NCBI GenBank assembly: GCA_965368975.1
Contig: CBDUPA010000018.1
Span: forward strand, 1-64,000
Direction of reading: 5' to 3'
From: an uncultured bacterium
GTDB taxonomy: Bacteria > Acidobacteriota > Thermoanaerobaculia > Multivoradales > JAHZIX01
Length of the DNA: 64,000 nt
The notes under the pieces were generated by a model. That model had not been told where the DNA came from. It made no database searches and saw nothing but the letters and a program-made list of their open reading frames with translations. The position numbers and the translations under genes were made by a program. This document shows, one piece after another, positions 39,581 through 49,809 of this stretch (position 1 is its first letter; the number at the start of each line of letters is the position of its first letter).

Positions 39581-39596
39581 TGGCACACCGGTTGCA
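39581..39596 (+). promoter_or_regulatory. Sigma-54 promoter for the precursor/lipidation operon
   Basis: TGGCACACCGGTTGCA, near-consensus TGGCAC-N5-TTGCA. Confidence 0.88.
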
Positions 39597-39677
39597 GTAA
39601 GCGCAAGTATCGCGAGTCAAGGGCCCTGAAAGACGCGATAGAAGCACATCAAACCATCACGAACGAGGAGCAACAAA

Positions 39678-39911
39678 GTGGAAAAGCACGAGAACTTCGA
39701 AGAGATGAGCATCGTCGAGCTGGAAGACCGCCTGGAGCTGGGAAGCCGCTGCCTGTGTCGCAACGGCGACGGTGGCGACGGTGGTTCCGGTGATGGCAGT
39801 GACGGTGGCGACGGCGGCTCCGGCACTGGCGAGGTTCCGATCACCGTCGATGTGACTCCTTCGCTCCCGGGTGGCGAGGAACTCATCCCTGACGAGCTCA
39901 CCCCTCGCTGA
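39678..39911 (+). CDS. Putative RiPP precursor (77 aa): acidic leader IVELEDRLELG, core SRCLCRN, Gly/Asp-rich tail
   Basis: GAGGAG RBS and GTG start. First gene behind the sigma-54 promoter, followed by a hairpin and RRE-bearing enzymes. Confidence 0.8.
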   Translation: MEKHENFEEMSIVELEDRLELGSRCLCRNGDGGDGGSGDGSDGGDGGSGTGEVPITVDVTPSLPGGEELIPDELTPR

Positions 39912-39936
39912 GCGGGATAGCGCGTTAGCGCCAAAC

Positions 39937-45968: not shown

Positions 45969-45996
45969 ACCCAGCCATCTGTTCCAGGAGAGCACC

Positions 45997-48900
45997 ATGC
46001 CCGCCTTCATGTTCACCCGTTCCAGTCGCTCCTCGACGCTGGCGCCTCCCTTCACCGAAGGTACGCAGCTGATAGACATCCTGGAGCTCCATGCCGCGGC
46101 TCGACCGAGCCAGGTCGCCTACCGCTTCCTGGACAGCAAGGGTACTGAGATCGCCAGCCTCGATTACGCCGCACTGGAACAGCGGGTACACGCAATCGGC
46201 AGTTCGCTGGTGGCTCAGGGCTGGCAAGGGCAACGAGCGCTGCTGCTCTATCCGCCTGGACTCGAATTCATCGAAGCCTTCCTGGGCTGCTTGTGGGCCG
46301 GCGTGCTGGCCGTGCCCGCCTATCCCCCGAAATCCACGCGGCACCTCGGCCGCCTGCGGGCCATCATCGACGACGCTGAACCCGCGATCGCCCTCACCTG
46401 TACCCATCTGCAGTCACGTATCGAACGTCAGCGGCAAGGGCTCTCGACTCTGCAGGAACTGCCTCTGGTCAGTACCGACACGCTCTACCAGGAGATGCTT
46501 GCATCCCGGCCGCAGCTCGACCTCGACGACCTCGCGTTCCTGCAATACACCTCGGGTTCGACGGCCGCCCCCAAGGGCGTGCGGGTGAGCCACGGCAACC
46601 TACTCGACAATGAGGCGCTCATCTACAAGGCGCACGGCCACTCGCCAGAATCGGTGCTGGTCAGCTGGCTGCCGACGTACCACGACATGGGGTTGATCGG
46701 CCAAGTGCTGCAGAGCCTCTACGCTGGGGCTCACTGTATCCTGATGGCACCCGCGACTTTCTTGCGCCGGCCGCGACTGTGGTTGGAAACGATCAGCCGC
46801 TTCCGGGGGACAACCAGCGGCGGCCCCAACTTCGCCTACGACCTGTGCGTGCAACGCATCGGTACGCAAGAGCTGCAGGGTCTCGACCTCTCGAGCTGGC
46901 AAGTCGCCTTCAACGGAGCCGAACCGGTGCGTGCGTCGACACTCGAGGGCTTCGCGCACCACTTCGCCGCCAGCGGCTTTCAGCGACACGCCTTCTTCCC
47001 CTGCTATGGACTAGCCGAAGCCACACTCTTCGTGGCCGGTGGTGACTCTCTGCACCCACCGGTCGTGCGTCACTTTCAAACTCCGTCTCTCGAGCGCGGA
47101 CGTGCGACGCTGGCACTCAGCGACTCCACGACCCCCTCCCGAGCCCTGGTCAGTTGCGGCCCCGTGCGCGAGGGCTTCGAAGTACAGATCGTCGATCCCG
47201 ACCTGTCGCACCCACTGCCGGATAGCTTCGTCGGTGAAGTCTGGCTCCGAGGCCCAAGTGTCGCACAGGGTTACTGGCAGGCCGGCGCAGATGACTTCAG
47301 TGGGCGTATCGCCGGAGGTGCGGACATGTTACGCACCGGCGATCTCGGCTTCTTGTACGAGGGCGAACTCTATCTCACCAGCCGGATCAAGGACTTGATC
47401 ATCCTGCGTGGCCGCAACCTGCACCCACAGGACATCGAACTCACCACCGAGCGCGTCCATCCGGCTTTGCGCTCTGGCGGTGGAGCTGCCTTCTCGATCG
47501 AGCCTCAGGCGGACGCCGCCAGCAACCAGTGCGCCGAACGGCTGATCCTGGTGCACGAATTGGAGAGCCAAGGCAGGCCCGAAGCACCTCGGATCGTCGA
47601 GCTGATCCGCGAAGCCATCTTCCAAGAACACGAGTTTCAGCCCGCGGCAGTGGTCCTTATCCGCACCCAAACCCTTCCGCGAACCAGCAGTGGCAAGGTA
47701 CAGCGCCGAGGCTGCCGCCAAGCCTACCTGGACGGCACCCTGCATGTACTCCACGCTTGGTCCTCGGAGACTGCGCAGCCGCGGGAACAAACACGCGTCG
47801 AGATTCCGAAAACACTCGATCAAGGCGAGCGGCTGTCAGCTTCCGCGGCGACGGCAGCTCGCGCCAACGCGGACACGACACCGGGGACACCGGTGATGCC
47901 AGCCCGTGAACCGGCTAAAGACATCGACACCTCTACGTCCGCTTCCCGGGCCGACGCGGCGATCACCTGGCTGCGCAGCTACTCTCGCCAGCGGCTCGAC
48001 TCCCGACTGATGGACGAACGGCGTTCGATCCCGCCGTCAGTGGTGCTCGACTTCGGCAACAACGGCCTCTTGGGATTGCTCGCCCAGAGGCGCCACGGTG
48101 GTCTCGGCCTGCGCCTTCCAGACGCGCTGCGCGTCTTCGAGCAACTCGCCGCCATAGACCTGAGCCTGGCGACCTTCGTCAGTGCCCACAATGGCCTGGG
48201 CCTGCGCACGCTCCTCCAGCACGGCTCGGAGTCGCTACGCCGTCGGCTGGTACCGCGCTTGGCCAGTGGCCGTGAACTTGGCTCCTTGGCTCTGACCGAG
48301 GACAACGCCGGCTCCAACCCACGGGTACTCGAAACCAGTGCCCTCCAAACGGGCGAGGGGCGCTGGCGCTTACACGGGAAGAAGATCTGGTCCGGCAGCG
48401 TCGCCTGGGCGGGTGTCATTCACGTCTTCGCGCGCCACCGTGGCGGTCCGCTGGACGGTCGCATCAGTGCCTTTGCCTTGCCGCGCGATCTCAGCGGAGT
48501 GCGACTCGGCCCCGAAGCTCTGACCTTCGGCGCCCGGGCCATGCTGCAAGGAACGGTCTACCTGGACGACGTCGAGGTCGGTGCCGAACATCTGCTGGGC
48601 GATGCGGGCATGGGTATGGAAGTCGCTCATGAGACCTTCCAGTTCGCTCGCCTGGGAATCGGTGCGTTGAGCCTGGGCGGCCTCAAGCGCTGTCTACAGT
48701 TGATGCTGCGCTACGCTCGCCGCCGCACCATCTCCACCGGCCTGCTGCTCGAAAATCCAGTCACCCTCGAACGCTTGCGCGGCCACGCGGCGGCTTCCGA
48801 AGCCCTGGAGAACCTCGTCACCTGGACCGCCGAACAAGCAGAGTCGACGGGATCGATCCCGATGGCCCCCGCCGTCACCTGCAAACTGCTCGGTTCCGAG

Positions 48901-49809
48901 TTCGTCTGGCAGGCCGCCGACGATCTGGTCCAGCTCCTCGGAGGCCGTGGCTACATGGAACCGAACCTGGCACCTCAGATCCTGCGCGACTCCCGCCTGT
49001 TCCGAATCTTCGAAGGCCCGTCCGAAACCCTCGCCAGCTTCCTTGGCGCCTCCTTCAGCAGTCGACCACAGGATCTGCGGTCGCTGCTAACGGAACGTCT
49101 CGATGCCACCGAACTCGAACAACAACTGCGAGAAGCCCAGGAAACTGCACAGGCAAGGCTCGGGACTTCCCCGAACTCCGCCGCTCGACAGCTCTACCAA
49201 TACCGTCTGGGCCTGGCTGTCAGCTGGACCGTGCTGGCCGCCGTCGCTCGAAGTGGCGCCCGCCTGCCCCTCGCGCGCGTGTCCGAGCGCTGGCTGCACA
49301 GCCGCGTCGAGGCAGCACTGGCAGACCTCTTACGCTTCCCGAGCGAAGATACCGAAAGCGCTCTTACGGTAGCCCAATTGCGCGAACTCTCCGACCAGCT
49401 CGATGCGGGAATCGGCAACGTCGACCAGAGCTACCCTGGCGAAGACCGAGAGATCGATCCTCTGCTGCAGGGGGACAACGAGCACCGCTCTTGCAGCCGC
49501 TTGCCACAGCCGACCGAGGCCTCCCGCGTGGCGGCCTCACCACTCTCGACCGACACAGCCGCGGCAGCTGGGAATCCCGGGGGAACAAGCCTCGAGACCT
49601 GGTTACTGCGATGGCTACAGACCAACACAGAAGACGATGGCGCCAGCCTCGGCCCTGACGTGACTTTCTCCCACTATGGGATCGACTCGGTCAGCGCGGT
49701 GCTCTTGGTGGGAGACCTGGAAGACTACCTGCAGCGAGAGCTGAGCCCGGATCTTCTGTGGACGTATCCAACCGTGCGATCTCTCGCGGCGCATCTGGAA
49801 AACAATTGA
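45997..49809 (+). CDS. FAAL - acyl-CoA dehydrogenase - ACP fusion protein
   Basis: FAAL: AFLQYTSGST..PKGV, SWLP.YHDMGLIG, GGPNFAY, PCYGLAEATL, RTGDLG, PRTSSGK. ACAD: ALTE..AGS, GKKIW, LGGRGY, RIFEGPSE. ACP: GIDSV. AGGAG RBS. Confidence 0.92.
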   Translation: MPAFMFTRSSRSSTLAPPFTEGTQLIDILELHAAARPSQVAYRFLDSKGTEIASLDYAALEQRVHAIGSSLVAQGWQGQRALLLYPPGLEFIEAFLGCLWAGVLAVPAYPPKSTRHLGRLRAIIDDAEPAIALTCTHLQSRIERQRQGLSTLQELPLVSTDTLYQEMLASRPQLDLDDLAFLQYTSGSTAAPKGVRVSHGNLLDNEALIYKAHGHSPESVLVSWLPTYHDMGLIGQVLQSLYAGAHCILMAPATFLRRPRLWLETISRFRGTTSGGPNFAYDLCVQRIGTQELQGLDLSSWQVAFNGAEPVRASTLEGFAHHFAASGFQRHAFFPCYGLAEATLFVAGGDSLHPPVVRHFQTPSLERGRATLALSDSTTPSRALVSCGPVREGFEVQIVDPDLSHPLPDSFVGEVWLRGPSVAQGYWQAGADDFSGRIAGGADMLRTGDLGFLYEGELYLTSRIKDLIILRGRNLHPQDIELTTERVHPALRSGGGAAFSIEPQADAASNQCAERLILVHELESQGRPEAPRIVELIREAIFQEHEFQPAAVVLIRTQTLPRTSSGKVQRRGCRQAYLDGTLHVLHAWSSETAQPREQTRVEIPKTLDQGERLSASAATAARANADTTPGTPVMPAREPAKDIDTSTSASRADAAITWLRSYSRQRLDSRLMDERRSIPPSVVLDFGNNGLLGLLAQRRHGGLGLRLPDALRVFEQLAAIDLSLATFVSAHNGLGLRTLLQHGSESLRRRLVPRLASGRELGSLALTEDNAGSNPRVLETSALQTGEGRWRLHGKKIWSGSVAWAGVIHVFARHRGGPLDGRISAFALPRDLSGVRLGPEALTFGARAMLQGTVYLDDVEVGAEHLLGDAGMGMEVAHETFQFARLGIGALSLGGLKRCLQLMLRYARRRTISTGLLLENPVTLERLRGHAAASEALENLVTWTAEQAESTGSIPMAPAVTCKLLGSEFVWQAADDLVQLLGGRGYMEPNLAPQILRDSRLFRIFEGPSETLASFLGASFSSRPQDLRSLLTERLDATELEQQLREAQETAQARLGTSPNSAARQLYQYRLGLAVSWTVLAAVARSGARLPLARVSERWLHSRVEAALADLLRFPSEDTESALTVAQLRELSDQLDAGIGNVDQSYPGEDREIDPLLQGDNEHRSCSRLPQPTEASRVAASPLSTDTAAAAGNPGGTSLETWLLRWLQTNTEDDGASLGPDVTFSHYGIDSVSAVLLVGDLEDYLQRELSPDLLWTYPTVRSLAAHLENN

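Follow-up and report, generated by a model that had tools for sequence, protein, structure and literature searches.

We analysed a stretch of 64,000 nucleotides from an uncultured member of the Acidobacteriota (contig CBDUPA010000018.1, positions 1 to 64,000; hereafter the window), in which an operon from position 39581 to 49809 encodes a 77-aa peptide, a membrane metalloprotease, an arginase-family enzyme, two acyltransferases, a polytopic membrane protein and a tri-domain acyl-activating protein. Our results suggest that this operon probably builds a fatty-acylated peptide of the kind that ribosomes synthesize and that is modified after translation (RiPP) from a gene-encoded precursor, by means of an arginase and acyltransferases that bear RiPP recognition elements (RREs). 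It is very likely a leader-guided RiPP operon. Arg is likely to be converted to ornithine, and acylation of the peptide by the acyltransferases is equally likely. That the ornithine amine is the acyl acceptor is the weakest link, a tentative proposal by analogy that we place slightly short of an even chance. The operon comprises the following features:

39581–39596, + strand: sigma-54-type promoter match (TGGCAC-N5-TTGCA), ~82 nt 5′ of the peptide start codon
39678–39911, + strand: precursor peptide gene, 77 aa (open reading frame (ORF) with a GTG start and AGGAG upstream)
40067–41395 (open frame from 39947), + strand: M50/HExxH intramembrane metalloprotease with an N-terminal RRE-like domain (PF02163 and NF041824, both below cut-off)
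41392–42645, + strand: RRE-fused ureohydrolase of PF00491, a putative peptide arginase (PF00491 match and model of the N-terminal domain)
42642–43925, + strand: acyltransferase 1 (AT1), with an LpxL/PatA-type PF03279 core and a C-terminal RRE-like domain (PF03279 match)
43929–44690, + strand: polytopic membrane protein, weakly CPBP/Rce1-like (PF02517, below cut-off)
44709–45968, + strand: acyltransferase 2 (AT2), with an LpxL/PatA-type core and a C-terminal RRE-like domain (PF03279 match and model)
45997–49809, + strand: tri-domain protein composed of a fatty acyl-AMP ligase (FAAL), an acyl-CoA/ACP dehydrogenase (ACAD) and an acyl carrier protein (ACP) (Pfam domains, ATG start)

The ATGA overlaps reported earlier for this operon are present at 41392–41395 and 42642–42645. 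The genes beyond them are separated by gaps of 3–28 nt and each has its own ribosome-binding site, and the genes downstream of the operon lie on the opposite strand. The peptide gene was confirmed, with AGGAG as its ribosome-binding site, and the M50 gene probably starts at ATG 40067. The FAAL gene has to be placed differently: it starts at ATG 45997 and not within the long ORF beginning at 45646.

The precursor consists of a leader with the sequence ELEDRLE, a core starting around S-R-C-L-C-R and a long Gly/Asp-rich tail, and its gene is single-copy in the source genome. Two homologues were found in a 5.8-billion-protein set (i.e. P0122, 70% identity, and P0123); all three peptides have MEKHENFEEMSIVELEDRLEL-x-SRCLCR in common, and their Gly/Asp tails are variable. 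Seven positions (E14, L15, E16, R18, E20, R24 and C25) are invariant in an alignment of 13 precursors, in which the leader motif of the family is ELE(D/E)RxE, the spacer from this motif to Arg-Cys measures 3 to 9 residues and the sequence beyond Arg-Cys is free. Arg-Cys is present in all 13 aligned precursors and in all nine copies of the Chondrinema locus described below. The original prediction had pointed to two Arg residues in an R-C-L-C-R core: the first Arg-Cys is invariant, and the second Arg and Cys are not. No match to the precursor was found in Pfam or NCBIfam at E 0.01, and it has no NHLP or Nif11 leader.

A regular expression for the leader, run in six frames over 186 loci and the window, matches the window and seven loci (i.e. 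the Chondrinema record, L039, L091, L092, L130, L146 and L150), and every match lies upstream of an M50–arginase pair on the same strand. Homologous clusters thus contain a conserved small peptide, as the original prediction demanded, with Arg-Cys precursors next to M50 and arginase genes at seven other loci. A conserved precursor adjoining modifying enzymes, one of the marks of a RiPP system, is therefore found in the window and at these seven loci, with the seven invariant positions given above. In Bacteroidota loci, the precursor genes occur 3 to 9 in tandem. At L186 1077–3175 (NZ_CP111044.1 247076–249174), there is a row of nine precursor-like genes of 36–45 aa; only the first of these is annotated in the record, and the rest of the 2-kb stretch is blank. 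Only the two-acyltransferase acidobacterial type has the CPBP-like protein and the long tail, acidic and rich in Gly, of the precursor.

Some similar peptides fall outside this family. Three weak matches to the precursor profile in 401 genomes of the phylum of a Lewinella metagenome-assembled genome (MAG), besides the MAG itself, were rejected as members, having a similar leader without Arg-Cys. Peptides of L193, L194 and L195 (genomes G466, G571 and G572) have the leaders KLEERLEM, ELEQRLE and ELEERLEL and no Arg-Cys; their cores are Cys-rich (e.g. GCCS... and PWIC...), and three tandem copies occur in L193. The leader type may thus be common to other RiPP classes.

The arginase-family enzyme matches PF00491 (E 1e-54, residues 120–395, 186.4 bits against a cut-off of 22), which is its only Pfam match at E 0.01 or better, and it falls outside PF12640. 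The NCBIfam equivalogs all score below their cut-offs: agmatinase reaches 128.5 (cut-off 174.3), arginase 64.8 (227.6) and formimidoylglutamase 94.9 (229.15). All six positions that we take to be the metal ligands of ureohydrolases (H, D, H, D, D and D) are intact in the window enzyme, as they are in 11 of the 13 other arginase-like proteins compared (12 of 14 in total). The enzyme had earlier been likened to OspR-type peptide arginases. This assignment has to be given up, because OspR, KspR, PhaR and PbsE belong to PF12640 and the window enzyme to PF00491.

Its N-terminus carries ~110 extra residues, which are conserved in 24 full-length homologues (47–94% identity, coverage of 92% or more) out of 120 listed proteins. 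Most of the remaining relatives listed are ~320-aa agmatinases with 65–74% query coverage and without the N-terminal extension; one arginase, P0025, appears frameshifted. The AlphaFold model of the N-terminal domain (mean predicted local distance difference test score (pLDDT) 83.7) contains three strands and then three helices. Foldseek retrieved almost exclusively RREs for this model (i.e. those of TigE, TbiB1, MccB, LynD, ThcOx, lasso B1, PbtF and NisB; best E 2.8e-3). A VIA-align search of 48,161 chains placed it closest to TigE (Z 11.4, root-mean-square deviation 3.5, 92 residues aligned), with further matches to MibB (8.8), MccB (8.6), the PbtF RRE (8.2), TbiB1 (7.7) and PqqD (5.5). A sequence profile of the domain gave a single match in the PDB, to the N-terminus of the radical-SAM RiPP maturase 8vpo (E 0.016). 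Pfam returned no match, PqqD included, for the four putative RRE domains of the window in isolation, even at E 10, so the RRE assignment rests on fold searches and profile–profile comparison. The fusion of an RRE to the arginase, as originally proposed, is borne out by the TigE match, with which Foldseek agrees: the modelled N-terminal domain folds as an RRE.

Both acyltransferases match PF03279 (Lip_A_acyltrans) above its cut-off of 22.3 bits (AT1 E 9e-11, 41.9 bits; AT2 E 6.7e-15, 55.5 bits). By contrast, the NCBIfam LpxL/PatA equivalogs give the two proteins 15–35 bits against cut-offs of 209–540, and the models for lipid A or phosphatidylinositol mannoside (PIM) acceptors do not apply to them. 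Among 1.84 billion representatives, AT2 has 1928 relatives at E ≤1e-3, 351 at 1e-10 and 13 at 1e-30. PF03279 is matched by all 39 aligned family members. The family has in common the motifs HxGP(Y/Q)R, DGNxG and PxQWE and a C-terminal domain of roughly 90 aa with the order strand-strand-strand-helix-helix-helix; AT1 aligns with it over its full length, C-terminal domain included. In a profile alignment, the conserved His coincides with the His of the PatA motif PHSGNWD, and the invariant Asp of DGNxG is a candidate acid partner for it. No N-terminal membrane helix is evident from the sequences of the family.

The AT2 model (pLDDT 91.9) has LpxM (5knk, E 2.9e-11) and PatA (5oce, E 4.7e-11) as its best structural matches in Foldseek, and its C-terminal domain matches the lasso-peptide RRE TbiB1. 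Profile–profile comparison with hhalign relates the C-terminal domain of the family to the arginase RRE (probability 86.6%, E 4.4e-6), and Pfam PqqD is matched by one of the 39 family members, at 0.015. The suggested check of the acyltransferases for RREs thus had a positive outcome, with an RRE-like C-terminal domain on both AT1 and AT2, and RRE (PqqD-like) domains, by which RiPP maturases recognize leaders, are found at the N-terminus of the arginase and the C-terminus of AT2. The C-terminal docking domain is carried by 80 of the 150 best AT2 representatives, and two representatives are AT-RRE-AT-RRE fusions. A search with AT1 in 401 genomes of the window's phylum found nine with a match, including the window's own, and the other eight matches have no C-terminal domain. 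Across the ORFs of every locus, acyltransferases bearing such a domain were found only next to RRE-arginases.

Fused forms of the acyltransferase were observed in P0124, P0125, P0289 and P0130, two of them AT-RRE-AT-RRE proteins and two combining PF03279 with an AMP-binding domain. The latter (P0289 and P0130) may be true fusions or artefacts of read-through or frameshift; to judge by length and source, the contig of P0130 (83,503 bp) probably also encodes P0025, the arginase that appears frameshifted.

We also modelled the complex of AT2 with precursor residues 1–40. It scored 0.67, and the best of three controls 0.00; this score is reached by 58 of 80 solved complexes and by 2 of 110 mismatched pairs, counts that apply roughly here since our own alignments were used. 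The runs agree in at least 44% of contacts, with a partner pLDDT of at least 54. Confident contacts link peptide residues 4–24 to AT2 residues 351–372 and 396–407, which in the AT2 model fall on the last strand of the C-terminal domain and the helices on either side of it, and also to residues 299–312 and 43–47. The model supports a predicted binding of the leader to the C-terminal domain of AT2, with the proviso that its success may reflect likeness only, RRE–leader complexes having already been solved.

The other operon proteins are compatible with such a system to different degrees. The M50 protease matches PF02163 below cut-off (E 2.9e-4), the daptide HExxH protease family NF041824 with 113.9 bits against 300 (E 9e-33) and the YydH/LiaK protease family NF058609 with 53.8 bits against 225 (E 2e-14). 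It shares with the latter two the character of an M50-type membrane metalloprotease in a RiPP cluster and is related to these families but not a member of them, as its scores are far below the cut-offs. HExGH and NPxxRxDGYW are kept in all nine M50 homologues aligned, and hhalign matches the N-terminal domain of the protease to the arginase RRE (68%) and to the acyltransferase C-terminal domain (58%). The label of the CPBP-like protein is weak, with a Pfam match to PF02517 below threshold (E 0.0056, 17.4 bits against 22.4) and no match in NCBIfam. Inspection by eye of the proteins of the window and of the related locus L011 indicates that EExxxR and FxxxH are replaced and HxxxD is kept, these being presumably the CPBP motifs; as a guess, the protein might serve in tail processing or self-protection. 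The FAAL-ACAD-ACP protein (1270 aa) contains Pfam AMP-binding, Acyl-CoA_dh N, M and C and C-terminal PP-binding domains. Its best NCBIfam matches are fatty acyl-AMP ligases (~E 1e-118, 396 bits against cut-offs of 775–922), and the ACAD part also matches the carrier-protein-dependent dehydrogenases RedW/PigA. Lipopeptide pathways with a separate ligase, dehydrogenase and ACP exist.

We then compared the gene content of related loci. N-terminally extended arginases are encoded at 11 loci (i.e. the window, L011, L039, L091, L092, L093, L108, L130, L146, L150 and L185/186). Acyltransferases with RRE-like domains are present in seven of these, as two genes in the window and in L011 and also in L039, L108, L146, L150 and L185, and they often adjoin acyl-activation and carrier-protein genes. 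The co-occurrence expected in the original prediction therefore stands for the precursor, M50 and arginase genes, which recur together, and extends to acyltransferases of this type in seven of the 11 loci. Since the other four show no acyltransferase, acylation is not obligatory for the family.

Locus L011, from an Acidobacteriota MAG, keeps the order arginase-AT1-membrane protein-AT2-FAAL-ACAD-ACP at 33–44% identity (e.g. 33% for AT1 and 40% for the CPBP-like protein, which occupies the same position). An M50 gene was not found elsewhere in the L011 genome, an incomplete MAG. The Bacteroidota loci L039 and L185/186 contain precursors, M50, arginase and one acyltransferase, together with an AMP-ligase, a phosphopantetheinyl transferase (PPTase), a ketosynthase (KS), a ketoreductase (KR), a dehydratase (DH) and an ACP. 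A tblastn search of plasmids with AT2 found one record, a plasmid of Chondrinema litorale (Bacteroidota). According to the gene names of the record, its locus contains an acyltransferase homologue, an adenylating enzyme, a PPTase, FabZ, two KS, a KR and an ACP-like gene; nine tandem genes of 36–45 aa precede M50 and an N-terminally extended arginase, and LanB and LanC are nearby. At L150 (6601–13097), a module occurs twice, each time with an RRE-bearing arginase-like protein without metal ligands, an intact stand-alone arginase and a cupin/JmjC hydroxylase. In appearance, each module pairs a pseudoenzyme for docking with a subunit for catalysis. The phaeornamide and biphenomycin pathways, in the parts of the literature drawn on here, pair an arginase with an ornithine hydroxylase, as L150 does.

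Matching contig sizes (35629, 10312, 11913, 12044, 83503 and 17832) and a common source suggest that six pairs of arginase and AT2 homologues are co-located. In our judgement, this is a cross-phylum family of RiPP lipopeptides, spanning the window's genome, an Acidobacteriota MAG, two Bacteroidota records and metagenome contigs. Its rarity is not established, because the arginase scans were swamped by ordinary agmatinases. Scans with the arginase alignment, run with generic patterns, returned at least 600 genome-contig and at least 597 metagenome-contig stretches, mostly ordinary agmatinases; the N-domain was covered in 2 of the 80 genome loci and 7 of the 80 metagenome loci kept, and no 47–61% identical homologue was among them.

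Three arginase loci were treated separately. The arginases of L073 and L004 were rejected as family members, having no M50, no leader motif and no match to the A2 profile, and the L073 ORF matches over the catalytic domain only. L093 was set aside as a different system, with an RRE-arginase, a ThiF protein and no leader motif. Here (152–2543), the ThiF-family protein is encoded directly upstream of an RRE-arginase with intact ligands, and the 3.5-kb contig contains no M50; it is possibly a different arginase-containing RiPP system.

Taken together, these features allow a pathway to be proposed. The leader would dock in turn on the RRE of each enzyme, and the ureohydrolase would hydrolyse the guanidine of Arg24, and probably that of Arg28, to give ornithine. 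The FAAL domain would charge the carrier domain of its own protein with a fatty acid, which the ACAD domain would desaturate. AT1 and AT2 could then transfer acyl groups from the carrier protein onto the peptide, with the side-chain amines of ornithine as the likeliest acceptors. The M50 protease would remove the leader at the membrane, and the ADOP/MacB-like permease encoded next to the operon may export the product. Ornithine is favoured as the acceptor by analogy with the selidamides, in which acylation requires the arginase step.

For comparison with known RiPPs, we relied on parts of four papers (PMC8784127, PMC12257519, PMC12703449 and PMC13647313). The selidamides (i.e. kamptornamide, phaeornamide and nostolysamides) are the nearest working analogue: they are ribosomal lipopeptides with a pathway arginase (putative in our case), which makes ornithine from core Arg, and the side chain is fatty-acylated (PMC8784127 and PMC13647313, in part). 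Their acylation depends on prior conversion of Arg to ornithine, according to the part of PMC8784127 used. However, selidamides employ a GNAT acyltransferase supplied from the acyl pool of the cell, an arginase of PF12640, leaders of the NHLP/Nif11 kind and LanM thioether rings, whereas the system described here has PF03279 transferases with their own RRE, a PF00491 arginase with an RRE, a different leader family and an acyl chain from a dedicated FAAL-ACAD-ACP. Pfam and NCBIfam scans revealed no lanthionine enzyme in the operon, and no GNAT family is among the matches of the seven operon proteins and the upstream radical-SAM protein. The architecture therefore differs from this characterised class, as originally claimed, with no GNAT, no PF12640 arginase and no NHLP/Nif11 leader.

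The individual enzymes also differ from their closest counterparts. OspR-type arginases (i.e. OspR, KspR, PhaR and PbsE) share with the window enzyme the ureohydrolase superfamily and the Mn-dependent conversion of peptidyl-Arg to peptidyl-Orn (proposed here). They are, however, PF12640 proteins with three motifs in the literature sections consulted, and the window enzyme is a PF00491 protein with an N-terminal RRE. LpxL, LpxM and PatA have the fold, the Pfam family and the His position in common with the window acyltransferases, for which a carrier-protein or CoA thioester donor is expected, but they acylate hydroxyls of lipid A or mannosides and have no RRE, whereas the window family has a C-terminal RRE-like domain. 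Lipolanthines, goadvionins, lipoavitides and aphotorhaptins are likewise RiPP hybrids with fatty acids or polyketides and a dedicated acyl supply; these are acylated at the N-terminus by GNATs after leader removal (PMC13647313, in part). According to the same part of that source (October 2026), all characterised RiPP acylations, selidamides included, use GNATs. In line with the claim of a new type of enzyme, no LpxL/LPLAT-type RiPP acyltransferase was found among the open-access papers and bioRxiv preprints searched, and neither an RRE-fused PF00491 arginase nor this leader motif was found in the same sources. What is new here are the maturase families and the precursor family; ribosomal lipopeptides with Arg-derived ornithine are already known.

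Several observations weigh against the proposed pathway. To our knowledge, characterised LpxL/PatA-family enzymes acylate sugar or lipid hydroxyls and not amines or peptides, and the acyltransferase motif H-x-G-x-x-R departs from the classic HX4(D/E) spacing. In the complex model, the confident contacts leave Arg24 and Cys25 outside the active site. The invariant Cys has no role when ornithine is the residue acylated, and the second Arg and Cys of RCLCR are unconserved beyond the closest relatives. As for the arginase, no characterised peptide arginase was found within PF00491 in the literature excerpts used, those named being PF12640 proteins, and in the arginases of L039, L146 and Chondrinema the N-terminal domain was missed by the A2 profile at E 1e-3. 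The RRE-type domain that the M50 protease probably carries, judging by profile comparison, is a moderate assignment only (58–68%). Finally, four of the 11 RRE-arginase loci have no acyltransferase. Three of these are contigs of 3.2–6.6 kb (L091, L092 and L093), but L130 extends over 21 kb without an acyltransferase and yet encodes an AMP-ligase, PPTase, thioesterase, ACP and LanB.

The same RiPP operon could acylate another acceptor, i.e. the thiol of the invariant Cys (possibly with a subsequent S-to-N shift) or the N-terminal amine that leader removal newly exposes, with ornithine serving otherwise (e.g. in marking an Arg|Cys cleavage site). Cys25 is as invariant as Arg24 and is left unexplained by acylation of ornithine, Arg-Cys, preceded by a spacer of 3–9 residues, terminates the conserved part of the leader as a cleavage junction would, and a thiol or hydroxyl acceptor would be chemically closer to the O-acyltransferase precedent of LpxL/PatA. 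In other RiPP lipopeptides made by GNATs, it is the N-terminus that is acylated, once the leader has been removed (PMC13647313, in part). However, the leader-docking domains on the acyltransferases and the complex model argue for action before leader removal, and the selidamide precedent, as far as the sources drawn on go, ties the arginase to ornithine acylation; we regard this alternative as unlikely. A more elaborate reading is quite unlikely, namely a cross-phylum class defined by the invariant Arg-Cys, in which Arg becomes ornithine, RRE-guided LpxL-type enzymes transfer an alpha,beta-unsaturated acyl chain from a dedicated carrier protein and the neighbouring Cys thiol adds to the enoyl group to form a lipid–peptide thioether ring. 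The equal invariance of Cys and Arg would be explained by it, as would the ACAD domain of the acidobacterial operons, and it fits the Lewinella locus, which has KS, KR and DH and no recognised enoyl reductase among the genes scanned, but the reductase of the zinc-dependent alcohol dehydrogenase (Zn-ADH) type encoded at L130 counts against it.

Two further explanations would detach the acyltransferases from the peptide. The M50 protease and the ureohydrolase alone might modify it, with the acyltransferases and FAAL-ACAD-ACP making a separate acylated small molecule or lipid and being merely co-encoded. This would suit the four RRE-arginase loci without an acyltransferase in the sequence at hand, and also the family precedent of lipid or sugar acylation. 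Such an arrangement is very unlikely in our view, as the C-terminal domain of the acyltransferases is homologous to the arginase RRE and matches TbiB1, the complex model passes its controls, and acyltransferases with an RRE occur only beside RRE-arginases, the eight matches in 400 other genomes of the same phylum having no such domain. The operon might also be no RiPP operon at all and instead encode a pathway of the ornithine-lipid or lipid-A-like kind, with the arginase as the source of free ornithine, LPLAT-type enzymes building the lipid and the small ORF incidental. The arginase, LPLAT, FAAL and ACP families would each fit lipid metabolism if taken singly. This is scarcely credible given the RRE folds on the enzymes, a cross-phylum precursor with invariant residues and a position that is always alike, a protease related to the daptide and YydH/LiaK RiPP proteases, and the 3 to 9 tandem precursor genes of Bacteroidota loci.

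Ribosomal lipopeptides are sought after because they could be engineered towards molecules resembling daptomycin or polymyxin. If leader-guided acylation of the precursor by AT1 and AT2 is true, the operon would add (i) a second, unrelated family of leader-guided peptide acyltransferases, which would be large (351 representatives at E ≤1e-10); (ii) a peptide arginase of a second type, one that comes from the classical arginase/agmatinase family; (iii) a new leader family; and (iv) an acyl supply that is defined and built in. A number of metagenome proteins annotated as 'lauroyl/myristoyl acyltransferase' would also acquire a function.

Regulation and export of the product may involve neighbouring genes, of which two features are relevant:

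36814–39435, − strand: ADOP (MacB-like) duplicated permease, divergent from the operon (TIGR03434, 760.8 bits against a cut-off of 622.3)
28067–30783, + strand: GAF-histidine kinase and NtrC-type sigma-54 activator (Pfam and NCBIfam matches)

The ADOP permease might export the product or act as a pump for self-protection. At L091, too, the arginase locus is followed by a MacB-type permease, and both together suggest export or self-protection. The ADOP match and the acidobact_VWFA matches described below serve as taxonomic markers, which, like the sources of the nearest homologues, point to Acidobacteriota. The GAF kinase and the activator (29353–30783 alone), ~9 kb upstream of the operon, are candidate regulators of it by proximity, and RpoN and one PPTase are encoded elsewhere in the source genome. 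As to the sigma-54 promoter reported earlier, the motif is present and TGGCAC-N5-TTGCA is the sole exact match within the window. With one mismatch allowed, five matches were found against 2.0 expected, and 7 of 100 shuffles reach five, so that the motif alone is statistically weak evidence. No sigma-54 motif was found upstream of the precursors in the related loci, and a scan for terminators and promoters gave nothing exceeding shuffles.

A second, separate RiPP-like pair is located in the window at 34865–36701 (+ strand) and consists of a radical SAM/SPASM maturase followed by a 64-aa peptide gene (36507–36701). The best NCBIfam matches of the maturase are CefB, TIGR04463 and PapB types, all below cut-off. 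The peptide ends in ...RPSCNTFTCVGYMP, and a strong hairpin follows. A one-mismatch sigma-54 motif (34821–34836) lies just 5′ of the radical-SAM gene. Divergent from this gene, an ABC ATPase and two ABC-2 permeases with DUF3526 are encoded at 30786–34692 (− strand), with another one-mismatch sigma-54 motif nearby (34665–34680, − strand). The NtrC-type regulator, the ABC/ABC-2 genes and both peptide operons may form one sigma-54 regulon. Farther upstream, two acidobact_VWFA proteins (21238–25012, − strand) score above the NCBIfam cut-offs.

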